Sequence record: PP400782
Length of the DNA: 64,000 bases
From: Escherichia phage FL31
Reading direction: 5' to 3' (one strand)
The position numbers were made by a program, and so were the translations under genes. Within the stretch, counting starts at the first letter, position 1. The number at the start of each line of letters is the position of its first letter. Shown piece by piece: positions 1 to 14,104 of the stretch. The notes beneath the pieces were generated by a model, which searched no databases, was not told the DNA's origin, and saw nothing but the letters and a program-made list of their open reading frames with translations.

Positions 1-41
1 ATGTTTCCTTTAAATGTAAATAGGTCTGAGTATTAGCTTTA

Positions 42-620
42 TTAGGAATTACGGGCTGCATTAGCAACGGCGTAAGCGTACTGAACATTAGCGTCTTTAA
101 ACGTGCCCTTAGTTGTATCTAGTTCTACCTTAAAACCGCCTTTAGCCATAACATCGGCAAATTCTTTACGGAAAGCCATTGCATCAAGACCTTTCCATGA
201 TGATTTATGCTTGGCAAATTCAAGACCTGCGAAGTTGACAGCTTTAGCTAATTTATTATCAATGACCCATTTACCTGCTTTAGGCACAAACTTCGGACCT
301 TTTTGTTTAGAGAACAGTTTTAAATTCCAGCGACGAAGGTCACTGTCGGCTTTAACAAAAGCTGCGTCTAAGTTACTAGCAACAACATCTTCAATATGAG
401 CAAATTTAAGTCCGTCAACTTCAATATTTAGATCATTACGCCAGCGTAGTCCTTCCCAAGCGAAGGCTTTAAAGTCGGAAGCCTTTGTAGCTAAGTACCG
501 TTCAATAGGAGCAGTTTTAGGGTCAAAGCCGTTTCCGCCACGATAAGTCCACTCGTCTTTATTAATGCCTTGAGCTTTTCCTGCAAAGGCCTCGGCGATA
601 AATTCTTTATATGTTTTCAT
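42..620 (-). CDS. ipIII: Internal protein III-like capsid-packaged protein with N-terminal capsid-targeting sequence (CTS)
   Basis: 192 aa; N-terminus MKTYKEFIAEA matches the T4 IP leader (MKTYQEFIAE) cleaved by gp21; size and body match T4 IPIII as recalled; ATG at 618-620. Confidence 0.7.
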   Translation of the reverse strand: MKTYKEFIAEAFAGKAQGINKDEWTYRGGNGFDPKTAPIERYLATKASDFKAFAWEGLRWRNDLNIEVDGLKFAHIEDVVASNLDAAFVKADSDLRRWNLKLFSKQKGPKFVPKAGKWVIDNKLAKAVNFAGLEFAKHKSSWKGLDAMAFRKEFADVMAKGGFKVELDTTKGTFKDANVQYAYAVANAARNS

Positions 621-645
621 TTTGTTCCTATTGATTTAATTTATG

Positions 646-960
646 TTATTCTTTAGGGAAGTTTTTAGAGTATGCGTCATAAAGTTTATTACCGATGCGA
701 CGGAAGACTTTAGCTGCAAAACGGTTTTCAGGGTTTTTAATCATGATTTGCATCATGTAAGTTCCTGCATCCGAAAGAGCTTCTTCATAGTACCCATTAA
801 TTTCTTTAAGAGTCCTACGTTTACCACCAGGACCATCAACAGTAATTTTCCATTTACCAGTAGAAGTGCGGCTCGGTGGTTCAACTTGTTCAATCCAAAT
901 ATAACCACCTTCAACGCGTTGGTTGGCGGATTCTGCAATAAATTCTTTATACGTTTTCAT
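646..960 (-). CDS. CTS-bearing internal-protein candidate (104 aa), function unknown
   Basis: N-terminus MKTYKEFIAES; ATG at 958-960; early promoter GTTTAC-N18-TATAAT and RBS AAGGAAA upstream. Confidence 0.55.
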   Translation of the reverse strand: MKTYKEFIAESANQRVEGGYIWIEQVEPPSRTSTGKWKITVDGPGGKRRTLKEINGYYEEALSDAGTYMMQIMIKNPENRFAAKVFRRIGNKLYDAYSKNFPKE

Positions 961-990
961 TTTTGTTTCCTTGTTTGTTTTGATAGAGTA

Positions 991-1020
991 ATTATACCAT
1001 ATTAATACTTAAGCGTAAAC
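991..1020 (-). promoter_or_regulatory. Early promoter GTTTAC-N18-TATAAT for the CTS-gene run 960 to 42
   Basis: Minus strand GTTTACGCTTAAGTATTAATATGGTATAAT. Confidence 0.55.
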
Positions 1021-1023
1021 AAT

Positions 1024-1284
1024 TTAAGCTTTACCGTCAGAAATAATTCCGAAGTTGTTAAAATCGTATCCAATATCGTCAACATCTACTTTAGGACTTG
1101 CTACAACATAAGCAATTTCACTACGTTTTGCATAGGTGTTGATTTCTTTACCATCGCCACCTAAGAAAGAATACCCATTACGTTTTAATGAGCCAAAGTC
1201 TTCCGCATCACCAATGAAAGCTTTAACTTTAAATTTAGGACCTTTGACATCTGTTTCAATGATAAATTCTTGATACATTTTCAT
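1024..1284 (-). CDS. CTS-bearing internal-protein candidate (86 aa), function unknown
   Basis: N-terminus MKMYQEFIIE; ATG at 1282-1284; directly downstream of denV on the minus strand. Confidence 0.55.
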   Translation of the reverse strand: MKMYQEFIIETDVKGPKFKVKAFIGDAEDFGSLKRNGYSFLGGDGKEINTYAKRSEIAYVVASPKVDVDDIGYDFNNFGIISDGKA

Positions 1285-1290
1285 TTTTCC

Positions 1291-1704
1291 TTAGTAAATT
1301 GATTTACCATAGTATTTGTACCAAGTAGGACGCTGAGCAATTTTTTCATCTAAGCGTGCTTGACTTATCGCAATGGACGCTTCGGACGGGACATAATTAT
1401 TACGAAATTCTACAGGAATATCGGAAATATCCTGGACAGTCGTGTCCTTGATTTTGAAACCACGTTTCAAACATTCGGCTATTAGCTCGATTTGACGTAA
1501 ACGTAAAAATTCGAGTTTGTCGTAAAAGAATGTTACGTGACCTGTGCCTAAGATAAATGTTGGAGAGATTTTAAAATCCTTTACACGTTTACCGTTTTGA
1601 ACATGTTTACGGACTGCACCAAATACGCGTGGTAATTCACGATACTCAGCCATAAGATGTTGGTCGGTCAGTTCAGAAACAAGTGTTAAATTGATACGGG
1701 TCAT
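1291..1704 (-). CDS. denV: Endonuclease V, pyrimidine-dimer DNA glycosylase/AP lyase
   Basis: 137 aa from internal ATG ([12 protein letters not shown]...), near-identical to T4 DenV as recalled; RBS GGAGGAAATT; ORF-track start is upstream non-ATG. Confidence 0.9.
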
Positions 1705-1709
1705 AATTT

Positions 1710-1761
1710 CCTCCAAGTAGTTGATGAATGTATAGTATCAAAGTCCTTGGAGGAAGTAAAC
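1710..1761 (-). promoter_or_regulatory. Early promoter for denV wrapped in an 8-bp inverted repeat
   Basis: GTTTAC-N18-TACTAT; arms CCTCCAAG (1710-1717) and CTTGGAGG (1746-1753) enclose the -10. Confidence 0.5.
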
Positions 1762-1762
1762 A

Positions 1763-2044
1763 CTATTTTTCTGAAGCGCCTGAAATATATTTTTCAAGAC
1801 GCTGTTTCATCAACGAGCCGTTCTTAGCGATTTCTTCCGGTTTATCGCACATACGCAACAATGCTTCAAGCTTAACGATATCACTGGTGCGCTCAAATTT
1901 GCGAGTATCTATCTTACTAGCAAGTTCAGAAATACGTGCTAATAGACTTTCGGCTTCAACCAAAGCTGCACCTAGCTTAGTTGCAAATGTGTCAGTAGCT
2001 TCGTTAAGAATAGATTCCGATAAAAATTCACTATATGTTTTCAT
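1763..2044 (-). CDS. CTS-bearing internal protein (93 aa) in the ipII/ipIII position between e and denV
   Basis: Starts [10 protein letters not shown] at ATG 2042-2044, overlapping the e stop (ATGA); track start is an upstream in-frame ATG. Confidence 0.55.
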
Positions 2045-2529
2045 ATATACGCTTTCCAAGTTCCTGTTTTAAATGTTGAGATTACGCGTTTCGCGCGATT
2101 AGGTGTCTGACGATACCATTTAGATTGGGCTAGATTTACTGCCGCTTCGTCCCAACGTTTCTGTTGAAGCATACGAAGAGAATTAGTAAAACCGGCGACG
2201 CCTGCTACACCCATTTGGAAGACCATATTGACCAATGCACAACGACGAACCGCATCTAAAAAATCATATACCGGTTTAAGTTTAGCATTACCCAAGATTC
2301 CGCGAACGGCTTTATCAACGTCTTCATTAAATAGCTTTTCAGCCTCATCAAGGGTAATTGTACCGTTGCATTTACGACCGATCATTCTGTCAAGTTCAGC
2401 TTTAGCTACGGCTAAAGACGGGTTCTTTGTTACCAAATGGCCTATGCCAATCGTCCAAAAGCCTTCAGTGTCTTTGTATAAAGTCAGTCTAAGACCTTCG
2501 TCATTACGAAGCATTTCAAATATATTCAT
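2041..2529 (-). CDS. e: Lysozyme (endolysin, glycoside hydrolase family 24)
   Basis: MNIFEMLR...GIGHL...; near-identical to T4 lysozyme as recalled; start trimmed to ATG 2527-2529 with RBS GGGAGGTA. Confidence 0.95.
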
Positions 2530-2563
2530 AATACCTCCCACGTTTATAGGAGGTATTTATTAC

Positions 2564-3022
2564 TTATAGGAGGGTAGTGAGCACCTTATATAATGATTTG
2601 CCCATTACATATTCCCATTGAGAAGGTTTAATTAAAGCGAATGCATCAAATTCAGGAATCTGTCGTCCGTCTGGGAATGTATGATAGGAATTACAAACAC
2701 TGTTTCTGAATTGCTCGTGCTCTACAGGGATGGTATATTGGAACAGATGAATATTCTTATTGTCTGAGTAATGATGTTCACCTAGGTCTTTCAGGAAGGC
2801 AGGGTCATATTGTGTAAACCCAGTTTCTTCTTCGCATTCACGAATAGCGGCTTCAATAGGAGATTCGCCAGGTTCGACACGGCCTTTAGGAATATCCCAC
2901 CGATGAGCTAAAGAACCTTTAGGACGAGAACCAGTTACACGGCCCATGAATAATTCTTTATCTTCGGTAAGGAAAATAATACCAGCTGATAGTTCTTTCA
3001 CTTTATTTTTCTTACTCATCAT
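2564..3022 (-). CDS. nudE: Nudix hydrolase NudE
   Basis: Nudix box GRVEPGESPIEAAIRECEEETG; position immediately after e as T4 e.1; ATG 3020-3022 overlaps upstream stop (ATGA). Confidence 0.85.
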   Translation of the reverse strand: MMSKKNKVKELSAGIIFLTEDKELFMGRVTGSRPKGSLAHRWDIPKGRVEPGESPIEAAIRECEEETGFTQYDPAFLKDLGEHHYSDNKNIHLFQYTIPVEHEQFRNSVCNSYHTFPDGRQIPEFDAFALIKPSQWEYVMGKSLYKVLTTLL

Positions 3023-3417
3023 CTCAAATTCCTGCATTCGGTGATAAAACGTTCAACTTCATTATTCTTGGCTTTTATCTTGTCTTTACGTTCCTGTAAA
3101 CTACTTTTAACAAGATTAATAATGATGCCTACAGTACCTCCACCAATAATACCACCAATAATACTTACGATAGTAGATGCTAATAAGATAGCGATAATAT
3201 CTAGTATAGCAAAGGCACTTACTTTAGTACTAAAAAACCACACTGACGGTACAAATATAATCCATCCTGTTATCCATTGACACTTATTGAAAAACTTTTC
3301 AAGCTCAGCTTGAGTTGTTCGTATTACTTCATCGATAGGTTGATATCCATTAATGTATCTGTTCACGATAATACCTGCTGGCTGGTTGATTTTAAATTCT
3401 TGGCAAATATGTTTCAC
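3019..3417 (-). CDS. Hypothetical membrane protein (C-terminal hydrophobic, Gly-rich segment)
   Basis: 132-aa ORF with no ATG anywhere in frame; only possible start is GTG at 3415-3417 with in-frame TAG directly upstream; weak RBS. Confidence 0.4.
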   Translation of the reverse strand: MKHICQEFKINQPAGIIVNRYINGYQPIDEVIRTTQAELEKFFNKCQWITGWIIFVPSVWFFSTKVSAFAILDIIAILLASTIVSIIGGIIGGGTVGIIINLVKSSLQERKDKIKAKNNEVERFITECRNLR

Positions 3418-3499
3418 TAAGTAGGATGGACATCCTGTCCAATCTACTGAATAATACGAAATACCTTCGTTGCATTAGACCAATATGTTTTGTTAATCA

Positions 3500-4186
3500 T
3501 TACCAGCCTTCCATAGGGAATTCCAGATAAACTTGAGCGTTGACACGAATTTCATTGGTAATCTTTTTAACTCGGTCTGTATTACGAGATACACGTCCAA
3601 ACCAACGCCATCCGTTACTAATTGCACGAGAACCAGTGTGCCATGTTTGCCAATCAAATTGAAGAAGAGTACGGTCTGGAGCTTCCCATTTCTCTAGTTC
3701 GCCTTTTTCGATTTTTTCGAGGACTTCTTTGTGCCACTGGCGATAGATAAGTTCGCCATCAGGAATCTGACTGAACTCTGCAGTTCCTGTTGCAAAATGA
3801 GTAGGACACACATCAGCGTTAACAAGACCAAGAATATGTTCAGACAAATAGCGAGGATTGTCATAGTCAGGTTGTCCTGCAGTAATAAAGTGTTGACCAA
3901 CTGGAATATCAGGGCGTGGAACATCGTCATGGTGATATCCAGGAATAGCAGGGTACCAGCCAGGCATCAGCATGTGGACTCGTGAATCAAATACAACCTG
4001 GTCGGTGTTCCAATCATCCGGCAAGTTCATGATGAAGCTGCGAGTAATAGGACCGCCGTTATTATAAGCAAATTCTAAACTACAGTTGAAGAACATAGGC
4101 TCGTTCTTGATTTTATCATTAGAAATACCGCCGGCAAAACCACCTACTGCACGAGCTTGACTATTAAACACTTTAGAACTATTCAT
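3500..4186 (-). CDS. Hypothetical protein (228 aa)
   Basis: ATG 4184-4186; long ORF in early block; His/Asp-rich motif GYHHDDVP; no family recognised. Confidence 0.55.
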   Translation of the reverse strand: MNSSKVFNSQARAVGGFAGGISNDKIKNEPMFFNCSLEFAYNNGGPITRSFIMNLPDDWNTDQVVFDSRVHMLMPGWYPAIPGYHHDDVPRPDIPVGQHFITAGQPDYDNPRYLSEHILGLVNADVCPTHFATGTAEFSQIPDGELIYRQWHKEVLEKIEKGELEKWEAPDRTLLQFDWQTWHTGSRAISNGWRWFGRVSRNTDRVKKITNEIRVNAQVYLEFPMEGW

Positions 4187-4187
4187 A

Positions 4188-4493
4188 TTATTTTCCTCGA
4201 CATTCTTTAATGAAATTTTCTAGATTGGTAGATTCAATAGCTTTTTTACGAGCTTCTGCGTGTTCTTCTTCGGTCAATTTATGTTTATAATTGACCCAGA
4301 CATTATGGTCGAAACTAGTCGTGGCATATAATAACAAAGCTCCGACGAATAATAAAAACGGTGATAAGAATATACAACCAGGCACACCATCCATACTGTA
4401 AGCCTTTTGTAATACTGCAACAGAAAGAGTTGCGTAAAAAAGTGATGCAAATATTGTTAAAAGACCAATTCGGTTGGTTTCGCCTAATTTCAT
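4188..4493 (-). CDS. Hypothetical small membrane protein (two predicted TM helices)
   Basis: ATG 4491-4493 preceded by GAGGAG RBS and palindromic early promoter. Confidence 0.55.
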   Translation of the reverse strand: MKLGETNRIGLLTIFASLFYATLSVAVLQKAYSMDGVPGCIFLSPFLLFVGALLLYATTSFDHNVWVNYKHKLTEEEHAEARKKAIESTNLENFIKECRGK

Positions 4494-4513
4494 AATATTC
4501 TCCTCATGTTTTG

Positions 4514-4550
4514 GTAGGACTACTATAACATAGTCCTATAATTGTGTAAA
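4514..4550 (-). promoter_or_regulatory. Early promoter with stem-loop (TAGGACT..AGTCCTA around -10 TATAGT)
   Basis: Minus strand GTTTACACAATTATAGGACTATGTTATAGTAGTCCTACC. Confidence 0.55.
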
Positions 4551-4563
4551 CAGTTTTGCGAAA

Positions 4564-5520
4564 TTATTTGAAAGGTTTTACCATATGGAAATTTTGTTTG
4601 AAACGTTTGACGTAATCGTCATGTCCTAAGCTTTGGTACATACTTACTACTTTGCTGTAGTTTTCCCAGGCGTATTCACGGAACCAACCGGAGGTGATGC
4701 TTGTACAGACCTTTTCCAATGCCGTCATAAAACTGGCTTCAGGGTTAATTTTAAAGTCATTAGGAATCTGAGAACGTTCTAATGCTAATACACATGATTC
4801 TTCATATACACCGGCCAATTTGACCATTTCCGGTAATGATTCGAACTTCTCGCGTGAGGTCATGACTTCAGAACCATCTTTCATGTAAAATGTATACGCT
4901 GGACGGTCTGTTAGTGCAATGGCTTCATGAATAGTATCATGGTCATATGTATAGATGTCATCTTTAAAGAATGCGCTTTTAGAAGTGTCAAGAACCGGGT
5001 GAGCATAATTCAAGGTTTCTTTCTGGCGTTTCAGCATAATTTCAGTAAGTTCATCGTTCAGTGTAACACCTTTACCACGAAGATACTGAATATGGTTCAT
5101 AGTCTTTAAAAAGAATGGATTATTTTTCTTGAAACGATGAGACATCTTAATTGCAAGACACATCTCAGGAGTTGCCCAGTAAAACCCGTTAAAACGATCT
5201 TTAGTCAAATTTTTCTTGGCGTATTTTAAAAGGTCATAAGAAGACGTGAAATCTTCAGGAGTGAGTTCACCGACTAATTCACGGACATTAGTGATTGCCG
5301 GAACAATATATGCTTCAAAATGAGTTTCGCGTCCATTATGGAAGCATTTGAAAACTTGGACATCAGGGTTATCTTGGTGAACATATACACCCATCATTTG
5401 ATTTTTGAATGCATTCCAAGAACCTTGGTCCGCAATAAAGTCCCAATCACTATTTTTAATAGCGCTAGAATCAATAAGACCGTGATAGTGAAGTGCACGA
5501 GAACCAATAACTAACATCAT
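4564..5520 (-). CDS. Hypothetical protein (318 aa), possible nucleotidyltransferase-like N-terminus
   Basis: ATG 5518-5520; N-terminal IGSRALHYHG...DWDF loosely resembles G[GS]...DxD; no confident family. Confidence 0.55.
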   Translation of the reverse strand: MMLVIGSRALHYHGLIDSSAIKNSDWDFIADQGSWNAFKNQMMGVYVHQDNPDVQVFKCFHNGRETHFEAYIVPAITNVRELVGELTPEDFTSSYDLLKYAKKNLTKDRFNGFYWATPEMCLAIKMSHRFKKNNPFFLKTMNHIQYLRGKGVTLNDELTEIMLKRQKETLNYAHPVLDTSKSAFFKDDIYTYDHDTIHEAIALTDRPAYTFYMKDGSEVMTSREKFESLPEMVKLAGVYEESCVLALERSQIPNDFKINPEASFMTALEKVCTSITSGWFREYAWENYSKVVSMYQSLGHDDYVKRFKQNFHMVKPFK

Positions 5521-5548
5521 AATATTTTCCTCGGATTAATTCATTAAC

Positions 5549-5800
5549 TTAAATTTCACGACATGCGATATTATATTCATCCCAGAGGTCATCGTGTGAA
5601 GCCTCTACTAATGGAACGATTGTACCATTTATGTCTTCATTATAAGGGCAAATTGTACAATGTGCATCTTCGAATCGGATGCCTTTGTGTTCAGATTTTT
5701 TATAACGCATATCGAATATCTTTGCAAACTTTTCACGAGTAATGGTTTTACCAACCACTTCGGTTCCGATACTTTCGTAATAAATCATTGTGGACTCCAT
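5549..5800 (-). CDS. Hypothetical protein (83 aa)
   Basis: ATG 5798-5800; palindromic early promoter upstream (5817-5846). Confidence 0.5.
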   Translation of the reverse strand: MESTMIYYESIGTEVVGKTITREKFAKIFDMRYKKSEHKGIRFEDAHCTICPYNEDINGTIVPLVEASHDDLWDEYNIACREI

Positions 5801-5808
5801 TTAATTTG

Positions 5809-5846
5809 ATAGGACTACTATAACATAGCCCTATCTTGTTGTAAAC
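5809..5846 (-). promoter_or_regulatory. Early promoter with stem-loop, same family
   Basis: ATAGGACT..AGCCCTAT arms (one mismatch) around TATAGT; GTTTAC at 5841-5846. Confidence 0.5.
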
Positions 5847-5851
5847 TGTTT

Positions 5852-6049
5852 TTAGCAAGAATAACTAGATGATACCCAGCCTTGAACAGTAATACTATTG
5901 TGGGATAATGAGATCGCGTCCTGGAGATTCAGACCTGCGTTATCTTCAATCCATAATGTAACTTCTTCGCGTTCTTCTGTTGCAATTTGGAACAGGTTTT
6001 CTAGAGCAGCTACTGCGGTACGTACAGCACAATCTAATTCACGAGACAT
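5852..6049 (-). CDS. Small acidic protein, paralogue 1 of tandem triplet ending WVSSSYSC
   Basis: 65 aa; ATG 6047-6049 with RBS TAAGGAAACC; C-terminal GWVSSSYSC shared with two upstream paralogues. Confidence 0.5.
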   Translation of the reverse strand: MSRELDCAVRTAVAALENLFQIATEEREEVTLWIEDNAGLNLQDAISLSHNSITVQGWVSSSYSC

Positions 6050-6058
6050 ATGGTTTCC

Positions 6059-6331
6059 TTAGCAAGTGTGAGAAGATGCAACCCAACCACCAGTTTCGAG
6101 GCTCAGGTTGTAGTCATATTGGTAAACGTCCGCCCATTCAGCATAGCCGTTTTTTGTACAACGTTCAAGATCGGCTTTAAGATGTCCGGGTGAATGATAG
6201 GTTCCACCCATACCATAAGCTGGGTACAAGTTGAATGTTGTGTTTTGTTTATCAGCAATTTCTTTGGCAGCCTCAATAGCTGCATAGATTTTTGCTACAG
6301 CTTCGGCCAGTTCGGTTTGTTCTTTAGACAT
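6059..6331 (-). CDS. Small acidic protein, paralogue 2 of tandem triplet ending WVASSHTC
   Basis: 90 aa; ATG 6329-6331 with RBS TAAGGAATC; Ala-rich N-terminal helix; C-terminus GGWVASSHTC. Confidence 0.55.
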   Translation of the reverse strand: MSKEQTELAEAVAKIYAAIEAAKEIADKQNTTFNLYPAYGMGGTYHSPGHLKADLERCTKNGYAEWADVYQYDYNLSLETGGWVASSHTC

Positions 6332-6340
6332 AATGATTCC

Positions 6341-6646
6341 TTAGCACAACGCAGAAGACGAAACCCAAGCACCTTCAGTAATAACGTATCCATTACCTTC
6401 ACGCTTAACATCGCCGCCATTATTTTCAATTTCATCTTTCATCCACTGGGATACGATTTCACCCTTAGGATAATAAGTACGACCGCTACCATAATCACCT
6501 ACAGAAAATGATACGGCATATTGGTCTGCGATCTTTGTTGCTTCTTCTTCGATACGTTCAGCTTGATTCAGAAGTTTATAAATTGCATCTGAAGCGGATT
6601 TGGCATCATTAAACTCTGGTACTTTAATTTCAATAATCTTACTCAT
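6341..6646 (-). CDS. Small acidic protein, paralogue 3 of tandem triplet ending WVSSSALC
   Basis: 101 aa; ATG 6644-6646; early promoter GTTTAC-N18-TATAAT at 6706-6735; C-terminus GAWVSSSALC. Confidence 0.55.
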   Translation of the reverse strand: MSKIIEIKVPEFNDAKSASDAIYKLLNQAERIEEEATKIADQYAVSFSVGDYGSGRTYYPKGEIVSQWMKDEIENNGGDVKREGNGYVITEGAWVSSSALC

Positions 6647-6744
6647 TTTCTACATTCCTTAATAAAGTTTTCGATTGTTTCATTTTCACGTCTAGCTAGG
6701 AGTTCATTATAACTAATCATTTGAGAAGCGTAAACAGCATAATT

Positions 6745-7137
6745 TCAGTTGAGGCTTTTGCATCTTATTTCCTTAACGAATTCCATAGCTTCTTCATATT
6801 CATACTTTTTAACAGCTTCATCATACTGAGCTTGGGCTTTTGCGCACTGAACTTTCCATTCTCTTAATCTGGCTCTGTGATGACGTCCTTGGTACCAATA
6901 TCCCATCCAGTTAATAGGCATTAATAAAAACGGTATAATAAGTGGTGCGACGAACATTAATGAAAATGCTGCATCAGACGATATAACTTCACTAGAATCT
7001 AAAACAGCTCCTATAATCATAAAGATTAAAAATGCTAAAGCTAAAATAGGGCCAAATAATACTTCATTTGGGATTAATTTACGCTTGTATTCATACGCCC
7101 AGGGCTTAATTGGCATGTATAGGGTTGGCTTTGACAT
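6745..7137 (-). CDS. Hypothetical membrane protein (2 TM helices, basic C-terminal tail)
   Basis: Trimmed to ATG 7135-7137 (MSKPTLYM...); ORF-track start is TTG. Confidence 0.45.
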   Translation of the reverse strand: MSKPTLYMPIKPWAYEYKRKLIPNEVLFGPILALAFLIFMIIGAVLDSSEVISSDAAFSLMFVAPLIIPFLLMPINWMGYWYQGRHHRARLREWKVQCAKAQAQYDEAVKKYEYEEAMEFVKEIRCKSLN

Positions 7138-7708
7138 ATTCTCTACATTCCATAATAAATTGCTCAAGGATTAAATTGTTAGTGAAATTAGGACTAACAA
7201 CCATAGTTTCATAAAGCGCATCAATAGCACTTAAAGCATCAGCTCTTTTAAGCAAAGGCTTGCCTTCATACATAGTTTCAGAATCGACGATTAACGTAAA
7301 GTAATATTTTTTATTATCGACTAGAACTTCTGTATCGATATAAAACATATTAGACCTTAAAAGCTTATCTCTAAAACCATAATAATCTTCAGAGCGTTCG
7401 CTGATATATTCCCATTCAGTGTTTAAACAACAAACAGACCATGTAGGAGCAACGAAATCAGTGAATCTAATATCATGGTCTGCAACTAGTTTAGCAATAG
7501 CTCCGATATCATGAATCATAATACCTGGGGCTAATAAAGATTTTCTGTTATGGCTAGCCGTTTTCTCGGTGGTCTCATAAGAAGCCGACCAGTACCATTT
7601 ACGACCGGTTGCGGCATATCGTAATGAATCAACTAAAGACGTAGGTGGATTTACCTTATTTCGGAACTCTTCGAACATTGAGTCAATATCATTATTTTGG
7701 TTTCGCAT
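7106..7708 (-). CDS. Hypothetical protein (200 aa)
   Basis: Trimmed to ATG 7706-7708 with RBS AAAGGAG; track start is TTG. Confidence 0.55.
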   Translation of the reverse strand: MRNQNNDIDSMFEEFRNKVNPPTSLVDSLRYAATGRKWYWSASYETTEKTASHNRKSLLAPGIMIHDIGAIAKLVADHDIRFTDFVAPTWSVCCLNTEWEYISERSEDYYGFRDKLLRSNMFYIDTEVLVDNKKYYFTLIVDSETMYEGKPLLKRADALSAIDALYETMVVSPNFTNNLILEQFIMECREYVKANPIHAN

Positions 7709-7731
7709 GTTAACTCCTTTATTATCCAAAA

Positions 7732-7749
7732 GGAGGACCGGAGTCCTCC
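7732..7749 (-). terminator. Hairpin plus T-run after ORF 7758-8351
   Basis: Minus strand GGAGGAC-TCCG-GTCCTCC then TTTTGG. Confidence 0.5.
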
Positions 7750-7757
7750 GTATTATT

Positions 7758-8351
7758 TTATTTCAAAGAGTTAATATATTCTTGTACATCAGCAGAAGTG
7801 GTTTCGACACCGACCGGAGTGCCATTGAATGTTTCGACACGAGTCAGAGTGTCTTCGATATCAACCTTAGTCAGTGCAGCGATTTCAATTACATCATCGG
7901 CCGTAGAGATACCAAGGGCATTGGCTGCTCGAGTTTCACGAATGTATTCGAGTTTGATTGCCAGGTTCTGACGAGCATCGTCAAGTTCAACCACCTTACG
8001 AGCAATTTCAATTCGCATAGCGGCATACCCGTCAGCTTTTGTATTAAGTTGTTCGGCAGTTCGACGATACAGAAGACCAAGCTTAGCATGCATGGTAACA
8101 TCTTGTCCTTCGGCCAGGAGCTTACGAATTTCACGTTCCTTAGAAGCGGCTTGCTTGTTCTTTTCATTAACAAGTTCGCGAATACGTTTTTCTTCATTAA
8201 TAGATTTAACAGAAGCCGTTTTTAGTTCTTTGATTTGGGTAATCAACTTATCTGCAGCTGCGTTATACTGTTCTTCAACAGTCAGATTTTTAGCCATAGC
8301 AGTACCCAGTTTAGTGCGGATGAATTCAACAAGTTTCTTCAGTGTGTTCAT
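7758..8351 (-). CDS. Hypothetical coiled-coil protein (197 aa), faint PspA/IM30-like character
   Basis: Trimmed to ATG 8349-8351; heptad-rich Lys/Glu/Ala/Arg composition; hairpin terminator directly downstream. Confidence 0.5.
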
Positions 8352-8421
8352 ATTATTACCTTTCAATTGGTGGTTTATTATCCAACGAGAGCATTATACT
8401 CTGCTCTCAAGAGTTTGTAAA

Positions 8422-8649
8422 TTATTTTTTAATCAAATTGACATAAAACTTGGCGTCTTCGGGGTGCATGCCTTCGCAGTATTCTTCAACCATGAACTTC
8501 TTAATAGCTTCATAAGGACCACTCAGATTAAGCTCAGTTGTCCAGAACTTGGAATCTTGGGCTGAATCGATACGAACTTCAGGGTGACGGTTGCGAATAA
8601 CTTCTTCGGTGTATTCATAATCAACGACATCAATACTAACTGTAGCCAT
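8422..8649 (-). CDS. Hypothetical protein (75 aa)
   Basis: ATG 8647-8649; GAGGAAAA RBS; early promoter TTTACA-N17-TATAGT at 8680-8708. Confidence 0.5.
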   Translation of the reverse strand: MATVSIDVVDYEYTEEVIRNRHPEVRIDSAQDSKFWTTELNLSGPYEAIKKFMVEEYCEGMHPEDAKFYVNLIKK

Positions 8650-8697
8650 TTTGTTTTCCTCTTGATTTGATAGGAGACTACTATAACATAAACTTAC

Positions 8698-8862
8698 TTA
8701 GATGTAAATTATTTCAACGTCACCTTTAGCTGCTTTATAACCTTCAGCCCAAGATACAACAGAGTTTTTATCTGAGGATTCAAATTCAGGCATTGGACTT
8801 TCACCAATATTCACACAGTATGTTTCTTCATTTTCATCGAACCAAATAATTAAAGTAGTCAT
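8698..8862 (-). CDS. Small ORF (54 aa) below ORF-track cutoff, driven by the duplicated 47-bp cassette
   Basis: ATG 8860-8862; MTTLIIWFDENEETYCVNIGESPMPEF...; promoter, GAGGAG RBS and first codons identical to 45012-45058. Confidence 0.4.
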   Translation of the reverse strand: MTTLIIWFDENEETYCVNIGESPMPEFESSDKNSVVSWAEGYKAAKGDVEIIYI

Positions 8863-8902
8863 TTTGTTTACTCCTCTGTAGTTGATAAGTCTATAGTATC
8901 AC
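8856..8902 (-). repeat. 47-bp exact direct repeat, copy A (early promoter -10, 5'UTR, RBS, ATG and first codons)
   Basis: TAGTCATTTTGTTTACTCCTCTGTAGTTGATAAGTCTATAGTATCAC read on the plus strand; identical at 45012-45058. Confidence 0.85.
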
Positions 8903-8930
8903 CATCCTTGGTGCTTGTACATCATTATTT

Positions 8931-9236
8931 TTAATTTTTCCAACTTAACAACTTGTAGTGTCCTTCATTCATACGTGGTTTATCCCAAGAAATACTAATA
9001 TATGATTCGCTGTCAATAGAAGTCGCCGGGTTTTTCTCTACCGTAAGACCTTCACTTTCCAGCCATTCAATAGTATTTGCGCATAAATCAGAAGAACACC
9101 TAATCGGAAACCGGCAAGATTTTTCACCTTTAGCTGCAGTGTTATACATCTTTTCTAAAATACGCTTTTGCACGTTTTTAAAAATAGTTTCAGCAGATTC
9201 TTCAGATTTTTTATTCAGTTCAGTGTAAAGACTCAT
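8931..9236 (-). CDS. Hypothetical protein (101 aa)
   Basis: ATG 9234-9236; GAGGAG RBS; early promoter GTTTAC-N17-TACTAT at 9265-9293. Confidence 0.5.
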   Translation of the reverse strand: MSLYTELNKKSEESAETIFKNVQKRILEKMYNTAAKGEKSCRFPIRCSSDLCANTIEWLESEGLTVEKNPATSIDSESYISISWDKPRMNEGHYKLLSWKN

Positions 9237-9323
9237 AATATTCTCCTCATGTTTTGATAGGTCTATAGTAACACATCTAGGGAAGAAGTAAACAACTTTT
9301 TCAGTAAGTTATAGACCCCCTAA

Positions 9324-9339
9324 AGGGGACCGAAGTCCC
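9324..9339 (-). terminator. UUCG-tetraloop hairpin after CTS gene 9346-9972
   Basis: Minus strand GGGGAC-TTCG-GTCCCC immediately after the stop. Confidence 0.45.
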
Positions 9340-9345
9340 CATTCT

Positions 9346-9972
9346 TTACTTACGAGTTTTTGCATACTGAGCAGCGTCAGCAGCCAAACGACCTGCCTGA
9401 CGAAGTTTTTCTTTAATCGCATCGTGAAGTGGTTGAGTGTACTTCAAACCTTCGATAGTCAAATAAAGACGATAAAGGTCCGGGGTATCAAGGTTGTTGA
9501 TATGTTGGCCATTACGAAGAATATTGAATTCACGAACGAGTGAAGATGTATCGGATTCAATATCACGAACAAGCGAAGATAGTTGTTTATATTTTTTTTC
9601 CAGACTAGAAGTATCAAACTTAAGAGCAGGAGCTTTAGGAGTTGCTTTTACTTCAGGCTTAGGCTCAGGTTTTGCTATTGCTTTAGGGGTCGCAGGTTTA
9701 GGAATGGAAGGAGTAGGTTTTACTTTAGGCGAACCCGATTTAGCAGAAACACCACCACTAACAATATCTTTGAATGCTTTAGAAGCTCTGTAATATTCTT
9801 TTTGGCTGGAAGTGTCGATACCGTACATGGCTTGAACGTTTTTGAAAAACTCTGTACTAGTTTTTGTACCAGAAATAGCATCGTAAGCAGCTTGCCATTT
9901 CTCTTTTGTCATACGTACACCGGCTTCGGTGATTACTTCCGTTTCGGCTAAAAATTCATTAAAAGTATACAT
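9346..9972 (-). CDS. CTS-bearing capsid-packaged protein candidate (208 aa) with Pro/Lys-rich linker
   Basis: Trimmed to ATG 9970-9972 (MYTFNEFLAE...); RBS TAAGGA; minus-strand TATAAATA at 10008-10015; linker PKVKPTPSIPKPATPKAIAKPEPKPEVKATPKAP. Confidence 0.6.
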   Translation of the reverse strand: MYTFNEFLAETEVITEAGVRMTKEKWQAAYDAISGTKTSTEFFKNVQAMYGIDTSSQKEYYRASKAFKDIVSGGVSAKSGSPKVKPTPSIPKPATPKAIAKPEPKPEVKATPKAPALKFDTSSLEKKYKQLSSLVRDIESDTSSLVREFNILRNGQHINNLDTPDLYRLYLTIEGLKYTQPLHDAIKEKLRQAGRLAADAAQYAKTRK

Positions 9973-10007
9973 CAATGGTCCTTAGAAAGTAGGTTTATTG
10001 TTTACTA

Positions 10008-10015
10008 TATTTATA
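10008..10015 (-). promoter_or_regulatory. Late promoter TATAAATA upstream of CTS protein 9346-9972
   Basis: Minus strand reads TGTATAAATATAG about 36 nt before the ATG, directly after hairpin plus T-run. Confidence 0.5.
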
Positions 10016-10021
10016 CAAAAA

Positions 10022-10045
10022 AGCCCCAACCTTTCGGAAGGGGCT
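10022..10045 (-). terminator. Hairpin plus T-run terminator ending the tRNA/structured-RNA transcript
   Basis: Minus strand AGCCCC..GGGGCT followed by TTTTTTG. Confidence 0.55.
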
Positions 10046-10345
10046 ATATACCTTGTCGGGGTTCCACCTGCTAAGGCAAGTGTTTGTACGAAACGCCGGG
10101 ATTCGAACCCGGTTATTAAGTAGTTGACGCTACTCAATATTTTTAAAAGGCCATATCTCGACCATATCCGAACGTTCCGTCAAAAACGCTACTCGGCTTA
10201 CGGCAAAGATATTTCCTCGAATCGATAATTCGGTGCGCCGTTTCTGCTGTGATATAAGGGGGCATTAACAAAACATAAAGATTTATTAATGCCAGTCCTT
10301 ACTCAGGGAACATCAGTCCGACGACTTACCGGTAGCGACCCGGCT
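10046..10345 (-). ncRNA. Possible stable structured RNA(s), tRNA-like T-arm element
   Basis: No ORF; minus strand contains CCGGGTTCGAATCCCGG (perfect T-arm) but no cloverleaf could be built; position matches where T4 encodes small stable RNAs (recall). Confidence 0.25.
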
Positions 10346-10347
10346 TC

Positions 10348-10692
10348 TTATTTTGGCATATCATCAATTTGCTCTCGACGCCGACGCCATAGATTAATCG
10401 CTTCATAAACACATTCTGCGTTTGGTATATGACGGCAATAATATAATGATTCGCGTTTCTGGAATCGATGTTGCAATGGGATTTCGTTTAAAAGGTCTTT
10501 ACGGTCAAAGTATTCAAAACTAGTTAACCCGGAACGGTTTTTAATGAACTTCCAATGACCAAATTCATTTTGAACATAGATGTAATCTGCATGTTGGTAT
10601 AACAAATTAATCAATCGGTCTGAAATAACTGTATCATGTTCGTTAAAATAAAACGTTAAATCATGAACTACTAAGTAAACATTACCTTTCAT
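10348..10692 (-). CDS. Hypothetical protein (114 aa) within the tRNA region
   Basis: Trimmed to ATG 10690-10692 with RBS GAGGAAA; track TTG start would overlap tRNA-Arg. Confidence 0.5.
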   Translation of the reverse strand: MKGNVYLVVHDLTFYFNEHDTVISDRLINLLYQHADYIYVQNEFGHWKFIKNRSGLTSFEYFDRKDLLNEIPLQHRFQKRESLYYCRHIPNAECVYEAINLWRRRREQIDDMPK

Positions 10693-10710
10693 ATTTTCCT
10701 CACTTAAAAT

Positions 10711-10787
<77 letters not shown>

Positions 10788-10887
10788 ATGATGCGGCTTT
10801 GGGTGTTTCAGTGTTACTCGTTTGTAGGTTCTACTTTTAACCCTTATTCGAACAACTTACCTACCTAAGAGCGTACTCACCGCGAAT

Positions 10888-10962
10888 TGGTGGCCCTGGC
10901 TGGTTTCGATCCAGCTACCTATCAGTTATGAGCTGACAGCTCTCCCATTGAGCTACAGGGCC
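10888..10962 (-). tRNA. tRNA with CAU anticodon (Met, or Ile if lysidine-modified as in T4)
   Basis: Minus strand: acceptor GGCCCTG/CAGGGCC, D-arm GCTC-AATGGGA-GAGC, anticodon arm GTCAG-CTCATAA-CTGAT, T-arm GCTGG-ATCGAAA-CCAGC, encoded ACCA. Confidence 0.8.
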
Positions 10963-11058
10963 TAAATAACTTTCTATTATGAAAGGCACTTGAGGGAGCA
11001 CCTTTGGTAATAGAGGGTAGATTAATAATAACACATAATTCTTAAAGCAAATTACGTT

Positions 11059-11349
11059 TTACCGTACCATATTAATGTAGTTATATTCAATGCAACGTAA
11101 TTTCAAAGGGTTCTTGAAAATATCATATTCAAGAGGGCCTTTTTCTGTTTCAATAAAGAAATCAAAGTTAACTGTGTTAAATTTAACGTCTTCACAGAGT
11201 AATTTAACTTGTGAAGATGAACGGTCGATATAAACCTTTTCAACCTCAAAGATAGTCAGAATACCGTAGTCATTAACCAGTGCTTTAGCTGCACGTTGGT
11301 CGCTTTCATATCCGTTCTCAATGGACGATACTTTAGCATAAAGAATCAT
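11059..11349 (-). CDS. Hypothetical protein (96 aa)
   Basis: ATG 11347-11349 overlapping upstream stop (ATGA). Confidence 0.5.
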   Translation of the reverse strand: MILYAKVSSIENGYESDQRAAKALVNDYGILTIFEVEKVYIDRSSSQVKLLCEDVKFNTVNFDFFIETEKGPLEYDIFKNPLKLRCIEYNYINMVR

Positions 11350-11708
11350 GAATGTTCCACCATTTCAAAGGTATGAGCATCAACAATATGATACCAGTCA
11401 AAATTTTCTTCCGCGTTTTTATAAATTTCGCGAAGAGCTTCAACAGTTTTTCCTGTAGCAACAAGATCGTCAATACCACCAAGAGGATAACAGTAATAAC
11501 CAGCAAACAGAAGGAAATTAATAGTTTCTGTAGGTTCTGGATGCAGAACTCCGTTATCGTCTACCACTTCAAAGAAAGTGTAAGAAGGAGTACAAGTTTT
11601 AATCCAAGCCCATGCTTGAGCTGCCGAATCAAATGGTTTGCGTATCAAACGACAATCAGGGTCTTTAGAAGGATTTGCTTCAAAATCTGCATATACATGA
11701 TATTTCAT
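11346..11708 (-). CDS. Hypothetical protein (120 aa)
   Basis: ATG 11706-11708; no recognisable motif. Confidence 0.5.
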   Translation of the reverse strand: MKYHVYADFEANPSKDPDCRLIRKPFDSAAQAWAWIKTCTPSYTFFEVVDDNGVLHPEPTETINFLLFAGYYCYPLGGIDDLVATGKTVEALREIYKNAEENFDWYHIVDAHTFEMVEHS

Positions 11709-11894
11709 TTACTCACCTTTTGCAATTTTATCCATAACAATAGCGATTAAACCGATTAGAAATGCTACTACCAATGAGATAGAATTTTCTGTTGTTGTCA
11801 GTAGTCCACAAATGAATCCTACAAACATCGAAAAACTAAAAGCCATTGAAGCAATTACTACAGCAACATTACGAATCAGTTCAGCGCGTTTCAT
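11709..11894 (-). CDS. Hypothetical small membrane protein (61 aa)
   Basis: Trimmed to ATG 11892-11894 (MKRAELIRNV...) with RBS GGAGA; early promoter at 11932-11960. Confidence 0.45.
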   Translation of the reverse strand: MKRAELIRNVAVVIASMAFSFSMFVGFICGLLTTTENSISLVVAFLIGLIAIVMDKIAKGE

Positions 11895-12057
11895 TTTATT
11901 TCTCCATTTACTCATTTGTTTTGATAGGACTACTATAACATATCCCTATAGGCTTGTATACCTTTATTTCAAATATATTGCGTATTTTTTATAGCCACCA
12001 GGCTCGTGTCGAAGACCTTTATCATTCGCAAAACGTTGAATGTTATTGAACTGGTTT

Positions 12058-12228
12058 TCATCAAGTTCGGATGTGTTAAATATAAAAAAAGTTTCGTTTG
12101 TTACCAAGCGTGATATGCGGAGTTAAGTCAATGTTATACAAATTAAGAATATCAGCAATAACCTGATTAACCGCTTTGTTAATTTTCACGCCAGACGATT
12201 CTGAGATGAATTCGTTGAAAGTTTTCAT
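12058..12228 (-). CDS. Small CTS-bearing ORF (56 aa) below ORF-track cutoff
   Basis: ATG 12226-12228; MKTFNEFISESSGVKINKAV...; early promoter TTTACA-N17-TATAGT at 12261-12289. Confidence 0.4.
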
Positions 12229-12252
12229 TTTAGGTTCCATTTGGTTGTTTTG

Positions 12253-12289
12253 ATAGGACTACTATAACATAGTCCTATCATGTTGTAAA
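12253..12289 (-). promoter_or_regulatory. Early promoter with perfect 8-bp stem-loop (ATAGGACT/AGTCCTAT)
   Basis: TTTACA-N17-TATAGT; arms at 12253-12260 and 12271-12278. Confidence 0.55.
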
Positions 12290-12601
12290 TTATTTTATGC
12301 CTTTAGAAGAAATGGTATTTTGGCGTTTGGCCCCTGTTTGTGAAAAATCGTGGTTATCGATTTGGTCAACTCTCATAACACCAAATGCGGATTTAATTTT
12401 GGCTTTTGAACCTTTTTTGATACTAATTATCATATAAGTATCATTTTTCTTATATTCGAAATTTGTTACTTCAACGCCTTGATTAGAAATTGACTTAATA
12501 ATAGCATTAGCGTATTCATCATCTAATGGACCGGTAGTGTTAATAATAAAATTTTTATCTGGTTTAGTAGCTTCAGCGATAAACTCTTGATAAGTTTTCA
12601 T
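12290..12601 (-). CDS. CTS-bearing internal protein at the ipI locus (103 aa)
   Basis: Trimmed to ATG 12599-12601 (MKTYQEFIAEATKPD...), exact T4 IP leader; sits where T4 encodes ipI. Confidence 0.6.
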   Translation of the reverse strand: MKTYQEFIAEATKPDKNFIINTTGPLDDEYANAIIKSISNQGVEVTNFEYKKNDTYMIISIKKGSKAKIKSAFGVMRVDQIDNHDFSQTGAKRQNTISSKGIK

Positions 12602-12630
12602 TTGTTTTTCCGTTTGGTTTGTGATTTGAT

Positions 12631-12666
12631 AGGATGATAGTAACACACCATCATCCTTATGTAAAC
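12631..12666 (-). promoter_or_regulatory. Early promoter with 8-bp stem-loop (AGGATGAT/ATCATCCT) for the ipI-locus CTS gene
   Basis: GTTTACA-N18-TACTAT; arms 12631-12638 and 12650-12657. Confidence 0.5.
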
Positions 12667-12679
12667 TGTTTTGTGAAAA

Positions 12680-13365
<686 letters not shown>

Positions 13366-13369
13366 TTTA

Positions 13370-14104
13370 TTACCTTAAGATTTTTTCAATTTTAGAATAA
13401 AGCTCTTCTAACGAGCCGTCGTTTGTAATAACTAAGTCGCCTTCTTCAATAGGCAACCCAGCTTCTGTAATATGTTTATCAGTGGATTCCGTACCAGAGC
13501 GAACCACATGAATAACTGTAGCACCCATCGCTCTAGCGGTTTCCATTTCATGGACTTGGCGTGTATCGGTCACAACGTAGTAATCGAAATCACTTCCAAT
13601 ATAATCCATATAGTTTAATGCAAAAAGTTTAACCCAATACATACGGTCAAATAAATTAACGACAACATCCGTACCGAGGGCTTGCATAAGACGGCGGATT
13701 GACCACGTGTCGTTGATATTATTTATAGCTTCACGCAGGGCTTCGTACGGTTTAATATCTAGATATGAGTATCCACCTTCTAGTGATGATAATACGTTAA
13801 CACCATTAATTGGCAGGTATTGTCGTTGTAAATAAATTAGCGTTTCTTCCATTAATTCAATAACATCCAATTTATTGAGATTTAATGGTGTTTCACGGTC
13901 GTATCCAATGCCTTCAAAGTATTCATATTTCAACTCGGTGAATACATCAGGGTTTTCGGCATGTTTACGCTCCCAAGCTATTGCTAGAGCGTCTTTAATT
14001 GGATACGCTAATTGATATTTTATAGATTTAAAGTTTGAATTGATGTAATCAGCAGTAGTGTCTTTACCACTACGTTTGATGCCGCTTAAAAAGATTAGCT
14101 CCAT
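13370..14104 (-). CDS. 1: Deoxynucleoside monophosphate kinase gp1
   Basis: 244 aa; P-loop LSGIKRSGKDT; matches T4 gp1 along length as recalled. Confidence 0.9.
   Translation of the reverse strand: MELIFLSGIKRSGKDTTADYINSNFKSIKYQLAYPIKDALAIAWERKHAENPDVFTELKYEYFEGIGYDRETPLNLNKLDVIELMEETLIYLQRQYLPINGVNVLSSLEGGYSYLDIKPYEALREAINNINDTWSIRRLMQALGTDVVVNLFDRMYWVKLFALNYMDYIGSDFDYYVVTDTRQVHEMETARAMGATVIHVVRSGTESTDKHITEAGLPIEEGDLVITNDGSLEELYSKIEKILR

Follow-up and report, generated by a model that had tools for sequence, protein, structure and literature searches.

PeSL-like early promoters overlapped by an inverted repeat at gene-cassette junctions in an RB69-like T4-type phage

According to the accounts given in PMC2839356 and PMC4122927, Repoila et al. 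(1994, EMBO J 13:4181) reported an early promoter with an inverted repeat at the internal-protein (IP) loci of T-even phages; the former account, citing the same work, places PeSL-like elements with T4 early promoters and weaker, AT-rich stems at both T-even IP loci. Arbiol et al. 2010 (PMC2839356) described the PeSL itself as a strong early promoter together with a stem-loop, which has a terminator or attenuator role and mediates modular shuffling, and termed the T-even elements analogues, not homologues, of the PeSLs of RB49. Terminator and mini-circle activity was shown in that study only for RB49/phi1 elements, and the experimental demonstration of termination concerned only the GC-rich RB49 stem-loop. 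For PST/T4, Comeau et al. 2014 (PMC4122927) gave the consensus TTTACW-N17-TAYWAT, with a stem of the form AGNA-loop-TCNT. The sites analysed below represent this known element of T4 phages, in which an inverted repeat overlaps a strong early promoter; they are PeSL-like in character and not new.

The window, by which we mean the whole 64,000-nucleotide stretch of Escherichia phage FL31 DNA (sequence record PP400782), derives from an RB69-like T4-type phage of the genus Mosigvirus. Its segment 4000-13000 shares 97.8% identity with Escherichia phage vB_EcoM_G2469 (hereafter G2469), the closest complete genome. The gene run, all on the minus strand, comprises denV, IP genes, small ORFs of unknown function, two tRNAs, 57B and gene 1. 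An Rfam scan of positions 1-14000 matched only the two tRNAs, and its covariance models called no family at any promoter hairpin in that range. The tRNA genes lie at 10714-10787 (-) and 10891-10962 (-), their G2469 equivalents being annotated as Arg(tct) and Met(cat); the tRNA region is variable among relatives and carries an inserted homing endonuclease gene in phage p000v. The IP gene at 12076-12228 (-) encodes only 50 amino acids, as against 87 in its G2469 orthologue, because a T homopolymer (T-run near 12083-12090) contains a +1 frameshift; either the gene is a pseudogene or the homopolymer was misread in sequencing. Four further tandem genes on the minus strand (42-1284 and 1763-2047) have an internal-protein leader at their start, and a promoter between such tandem genes, at 991-1019, has no hairpin.

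The original prediction had placed six early promoters in this region, each with its -10 box in the loop of an inverted repeat. All six were found at the coordinates given, on the minus strand (Table 1). Read on that strand, they have a -35 box TTTACA (TATACA at 11960), a 17-nt spacer and a -10 box TATAGT preceded by TGn, with A-rich sequence upstream; of the promoter-like matches in positions 1-14000, they are among the best, in keeping with their designation as early promoters. The four that had been called near-identical share a 24-nt core, TAGGACTACTATAACATAGTCCTA, with 0-2 mismatches (4515-4538, 5810-5833, 11925-11948 and 12254-12277); 100 dinucleotide-preserving shuffles gave no match to this core. 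The arms are TAGGACTA (-23 to -16) and TAGTCCTA (-7 to +1), and the inverted repeat spans 8-12 bp over the copies, being lengthened to 11-12 bp at 12251-12280. As had been predicted for the -10 box, the extended -10 lies in the loop, TGTTATAG: five of the -10 bases fall there, and the sixth forms the first pair of the stem. At the variant site 12631-12666, the outer AGGA/TCCT is retained, and the inner stem differs yet is complementary. Gaps between co-oriented early genes measure about 60-70 nt, with the upstream stop codon 0-14 nt from the -35 box, the Shine-Dalgarno sequence about 20 nt past the -10 box and the start codons 28-37 nt past it. Positions 1-13000 contain six hairpin elements, none of them among late genes.

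Table 1. Positions of the early promoters and associated repeats in the window.
Feature	Coordinates	Strand	Details
Early promoter/stem-loop	4514-4550	-	Upstream of membrane-protein gene 4188-4493; -35 4545-4550, -10 4522-4527; arms 4531-4538 and 4515-4522
Element	5808-5845	-	Upstream of ORF 5549-5788; -35 5840-5845, -10 5817-5822; arms GAUAGGGCUA/UAGUCCUAUC, one G.U
Element	11924-11960	-	Upstream of trna.4-like gene 11709-11894; -35 TATACA 11955-11960, -10 11932-11937; imperfect stem with one mismatch and one G.U
Element	12251-12289	-	Upstream of IP gene 12076-12228; -35 12284-12289, -10 12261-12266; perfect 11-12 bp stem, the most stable copy
Variant element	12631-12665	-	Upstream of IP gene 12290-12601; -35 12660-12665, -10 TACTAT 12637-12642; arms AGGATGAT (12650-12657 on +) and ATCATCCT (12631-12638 on +)
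Element sharing the design, arms unrelated (GAGAGCA/TGCTCTC)	8387-8421	-	-10 TATAAT 8393-8398; upstream of e.6-like gene; absent from the original prediction
Degenerate half element	8680-8708	-	Promoter and 3' arm kept with 2-nt insertion; 5' arm lost; no hairpin (z +0.99); absent from the original prediction
denV early promoter in Shine-Dalgarno-sequestering repeat	1708-1760	-	-35 1755-1760, -10 1732-1737; start codon 1702-1704

The family to which the four near-identical copies belong has eight copies in G2469, and the element type with arms GAGAGCA/TGCTCTC has four members there. The half element at 8680-8708 resembles the degraded '1/2 PeSLs' of Comeau et al. 2014 (PMC4122927).

The sites fit the PeSL-like class, since all of its sequence-level defining features are present. 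Their promoters (TTTACA-N17-TATAGT or TACTAT) conform to the TTTACW-N17-TAYWAT consensus and their stems (AGGA...TCCT) to the AGNA-loop-TCNT form; they are intergenic, occur in many copies among small accessory genes and are associated with indels. Among the described systems, the elements of the T-even IP loci share with them the neighbourhoods denV-ipII-ipIII and trna.4-ipI-57B, promoters of the T4 early type, AT-rich stems of variable sequence, flanked IP genes that carry an MKTYxEFIxE leader, and IP cassettes that vary between related phages at the elements. They differ from the T4 loci in that the arm family of the RB69-like phage, TAGGACTA/TAGTCCTA, is not that of T4, in that copies also precede the non-IP genes 4188-4493, 5549-5788 and 11709-11894, and in that copies lie far from the IP loci across the full G2469 genome. 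With the PeSLs of RB49/phi1, PST/T4 and nt-1/KVP40 they have in common a composite structure, an intergenic and multicopy occurrence among small accessory genes and a location at indel junctions, and a stem overlapping the -10 box is one common arrangement among RB49 PeSLs (PMC2839356). The RB49 PeSLs, in contrast, have near-consensus TTGACA/TATAAT promoters and poly-G/poly-C stems.

We surveyed the pairing genome-wide by assembling the whole of G2469 and scanning early-promoter-like sites with an ORF within 45 nt; T4 was surveyed over 50-100 kb. Perfect stems of at least 6, 7 and 8 bp enclosing the -10 box were present at 18, 11 and 9 of the 48 G2469 promoters, respectively, against shuffle means of 2.9, 0.78 and 0.23, counts which, like the covariation figures, are inflated by kinship among the copies. 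A permutation control, in which the downstream halves were swapped between G2469 promoters, was also exceeded. In an ungapped alignment of 81 promoters that had not been selected for stems, the covariation score at the pairing given above was 0.321, compared with 0.232 for shuffles, none of 500 of which reached the observed value, and with a maximum of 0.224 for slid pairing partners. The register -16:-7 to -23:+1 had at least 7 of 8 Watson-Crick pairs in 26 of 114 promoters, as against 0-1 at shifted registers. The registers of T4 ipII and ipIII are shifted by 2-3 nt, and the fixed register partly reflects common ancestry.

The arms themselves vary widely. Compensatory arm types round the same loop include TAGGACTA/TAGTCCTA, TAGGGCTA/TAGCCCTA, TAGGGTCA/TGACCCTA, AGGGCCA/TGGCCCT and GAGAGCA/TGCTCTC, the third and fourth of which, together with TGGTAGGAAG/CTTCCTACCA, are contributed by T4-like metagenomic contigs; GGACTA/TAGTCC versus GGGCTA/TAGCCC represents a double compensatory change. 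T4 ipI, ipII and ipIII have the same layout with wholly different arms (TGATGAGGTA/TACCTCATCA in ipI and TCCTAGAATTGTGA/TCACAATTCTAGGA in ipII). IMG/VR was scanned with a promoter-only pattern, TTTACA-N14-TGTTATAGT; among the matches listed, most were chance matches in unrelated contigs, which served as background and had stems mostly of 2-5 bp, and at least about 8 were T4-like loci with new arm types. The arms thus co-vary among copies and among related phages, the outcome on which the original prediction had staked its proposal. Taken together, these comparisons indicate that the inverted repeat is under selection beyond shared ancestry, and the number of independent arm types makes this qualitative conclusion safe despite the kinship.

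It had also been proposed that RNA reading through from the upstream gene would fold into a hairpin at the next promoter. Such hairpins are predicted at all five compact sites of the original list, with energies from -9.1 to -17.5 kcal/mol: -13.4 kcal/mol at 4550 (z -2.5), -16.0 at 5845 (z -4.8), -17.5 at 12289 (z -6.2), -15.4 at 12666 (z -4.0) and, more weakly, -9.1 at 11960 (z -1.2). Four of these five fold better than almost all shuffles, and the compact hairpins are kept when folded in 141-nt contexts. The additional element at 8387-8421 gives -12.6 kcal/mol (z -3.7). RB69 early promoters have a reported C-rich consensus at -3 to -1, with which the arm numbering -23 to -16 and -7 to +1 agrees. 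From this consensus and the spacing we infer the position of the transcription start: the element's own transcript should begin near the final base of the 3' arm, which would leave read-through RNA as the only RNA able to hold the hairpin. A literature search for T4 3'-end or long-read transcript maps gave nothing usable.

The same pairing would also be compatible with a role in DNA, in which an extruded cruciform or single-strand hairpin offers the -10 box as single-stranded DNA to sigma-70, or a cut by a structure-specific nuclease starts cassette exchange. Conserved pairing with varying sequence suits DNA hairpins as well as RNA, the -10 box is always in the loop, and Arbiol et al. (PMC2839356) speculated on a structure- or sequence-specific recombination factor. 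RB49 stem-loops, however, occupy five different positions relative to the promoter (PMC2839356), which argues against a role in a fixed promoter geometry. G.T pairs, which count as mismatches on one of the two DNA strands, are moreover tolerated in several copies. Extrusion is also known to be poor for stems of 8-12 bp with 8-nt loops. More G.T than A.C mismatches would favour folding in the sense-strand RNA. In the raw counts of non-Watson-Crick pairs, 13 were G.T and 2 were A.C; with the promoter-constrained closing pair excluded and identical arm types collapsed, these became 9 and 6 (p = 0.6). Since the G.T excess is gone once constrained and related positions are corrected for, these pairing data fit structure in RNA and structure in DNA alike. 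All things considered, we regard a DNA-level function as unlikely.

The original prediction had further proposed that the element acts as a terminator or processing site and a promoter in one. In its strong form, which is also that of the strong PeSL model, the stems would be efficient factor-independent terminators and each gene a closed promoter-to-terminator unit. This receives support from the position of the hairpins directly after the upstream stop codons and from the RB49 PeSL stem-loop, which cut lacZ read-through about as much as rrnB T1 (PMC2839356). The RB49 stems are GC-rich, whereas the stems here hold only 3-4 G-C pairs. No T/U run follows the stem at any site, the tail after the stems being CCTATCAAAACAA, and a terminator scan of positions 1-14000 called none of the promoter stems, yet found a canonical terminator (GGAGGAC...GTCCTCC-TTTT) at 7749-7732. 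The latter shows that the phage uses ordinary terminators where needed, and the G2469 annotation likewise puts predicted terminators elsewhere. The elements thus share with intrinsic (Rho-independent) terminators an RNA stem-loop just past a stop codon and differ from them in the missing U-tract and the few G-C pairs. Efficient intrinsic termination is rated unlikely on account of the missing U-tract, the scan result and the canonical terminator, and we give the closed-unit model little chance of being correct; AT-rich stems such as these, lacking a U-tract, do not suit the 'terminator' label used in the literature. Its G+C-rich hairpin, GGAGGACTCCGGTCCTCC (window 7732-7749, both strands), has TTTT directly after it on the minus strand, and the G2469 equivalent is annotated as a terminator.

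Two other readings fare worse. The palindrome might be the operator of a dimeric DNA-binding protein, for example one acting in early-promoter shut-off, a process incompletely understood in T4, and the 24-bp dyad is centred on the -10 box; this is highly improbable, and we rejected it on the co-variation of the arms, which differ completely between copies and phages with complementarity kept, pointing to a folded nucleic acid, and most early promoters have no such repeat. That the repeat is functionless and was merely carried along in the duplication of a single ancestral promoter, as the four near-identical copies and the eight same-family copies in G2469 might suggest, is hardly credible and was likewise rejected on the arm co-variation, given that unrelated arm families share the design, that double compensatory changes occur and that the excess over shuffled and permuted nulls is strong.

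The denV site, which had been grouped with the others (as 1710-1761), is a real promoter in a repeat and does not share their design. Its 10-bp repeat pairs the 5' arm UUCCUCCAAG (1746-1755), the spacer just downstream of the -35 box, with CUUGGAGGAA (1708-1717), which includes the Shine-Dalgarno sequence of denV (assigned to phrog_1183), and leaves the -10 box in a 28-nt loop; a 121-nt fold has -25.5 kcal/mol (z -3.1). The compact hairpins at the other five sites leave the Shine-Dalgarno sequence untouched. Folding suggests that, in read-through RNA, this repeat hides the Shine-Dalgarno sequence of denV, a mechanism different from that of the compact hairpins. T4 denV and regB have the same spacer-to-Shine-Dalgarno design with different arm sequences, and such pairing of at least 7 bp occurs at 6 of 48 early promoters in G2469, against a permutation mean of 1.36. 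These would form a second class of early promoters, with read-through RNA translationally masked and promoter-proximal RNA open. The sites of this class are at 1708-1760 (-) in the window, at 7427, 20333, 20767, 58581, 62234 and 65984 in G2469 and at 12796 and 15412 of the T4 locus. The arrangement resembles the inhibitory hairpins of T4 e, soc, 49 and I-TevI (PMC3014915) in that the denV 3' arm contains the Shine-Dalgarno sequence and a promoter lies inside the hairpin. The T4 genes, in contrast, use late promoters and have translation on late, whereas the internal promoter of denV is early.

A more far-reaching revision would be that the repeat is no RNA signal at all and is instead a DNA-level structural part of an early-promoter subclass or, on a smaller reading, that roughly an eighth of the early promoters, those of denV and regB among them, lie inside Shine-Dalgarno-masking hairpins; we think it improbable that matters stand this way. 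If the DNA-level reading were true, such promoters would sense template topology; if the masking reading were true, denV, regB and others would be translated only from the transcripts of their own promoters.

The repeated copies had also been proposed to provide homology for recombination, and they do coincide with insertion, deletion and replacement junctions in the three relatives, JS09, p000v and LF82-1, with which we compared positions 3500-13200 of the window. JS09 has a 262-bp insertion exactly at window 4545-4551 (JS09 locus 1051-1312), containing an extra ORF, JS09_048, of 66 amino acids, for which the annotation gives similarity to a protein of Yersinia phage phiD1; the insert lies between two promoter/stem-loop elements whose arms differ, AGGTCT/AGACCT and TAGGGCTA/TAGTCCTA. 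Phage p000v is without 11962-12222, that is, one IP cassette, and has a single hybrid element, the upstream half of which matches the 12289 copy and the downstream half the 11960 copy. The element 11924-11960 is a cassette junction in all three relatives. Between the elements, JS09 and LF82-1 carry different IP genes, and homology picks up again at the conserved leader codons of these genes. Of the approximately eight breakpoint clusters in these comparisons, about 5 lie at early promoters, including 4 at hairpin elements; the three others are located away from promoters, at 8946-8976, in the tRNA region and at 11052-11061. These alignments indicate that the elements mark points at which related phages swapped or lost gene cassettes.

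The explanation that we consider probable is that each site is a T-even-type early promoter with a selected inverted repeat, whose read-through hairpin serves as a weak attenuator, a pause or a 3'-end barrier, and which provides portable homology. Its promoter-like anatomy, predicted fold, selected pairing and coincidence with junctions are directly supported by the analyses above. As regards the original prediction as a whole, the promoters, the selected repeat and the junctions stand, the terminator is not supported, and denV was grouped with elements of another kind. At each element, host sigma-70 RNA polymerase would recognise TTTACA, the 17-nt spacer and TGnTATAGT. The intergenic gap is taken up nearly entirely by the promoter, which limits the stem to the loosely constrained spacer and positions -6 to +1; with only these segments free for the stem, the -10 box comes to lie in the loop. 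Transcripts started at the element would be without the hairpin, and those reading through from the upstream gene would fold an 8-12 bp hairpin just past its stop codon. Hairpin formation in vivo, like any attenuator or stabiliser activity, is something we infer: the read-through hairpin is most likely a weak attenuator, a pause site or a barrier at the 3' end against 3' exonuclease, and it may in this way provide every small cassette with transcriptional insulation and make the upstream message more stable. The conserved element of about 70 bp would at the same time act as portable homology, joined at the IP genes by the conserved leader codons, which the T4 recombination machinery could use to delete, insert or swap the flanked cassettes.

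No new principle emerges from the window. What it contributes is the occurrence of a known design in an RB69-like phage, together with quantitative evidence of selected pairing. Elements of this class help explain how T4-type phages maintain dozens of small accessory genes, each of which could be expressed independently and exchanged easily. Many of these small genes are likely anti-defence genes, and the IP cassettes have an effect on host range: GmrSD is blocked by IPI, and T4 requires IPIII to infect ECOR17.
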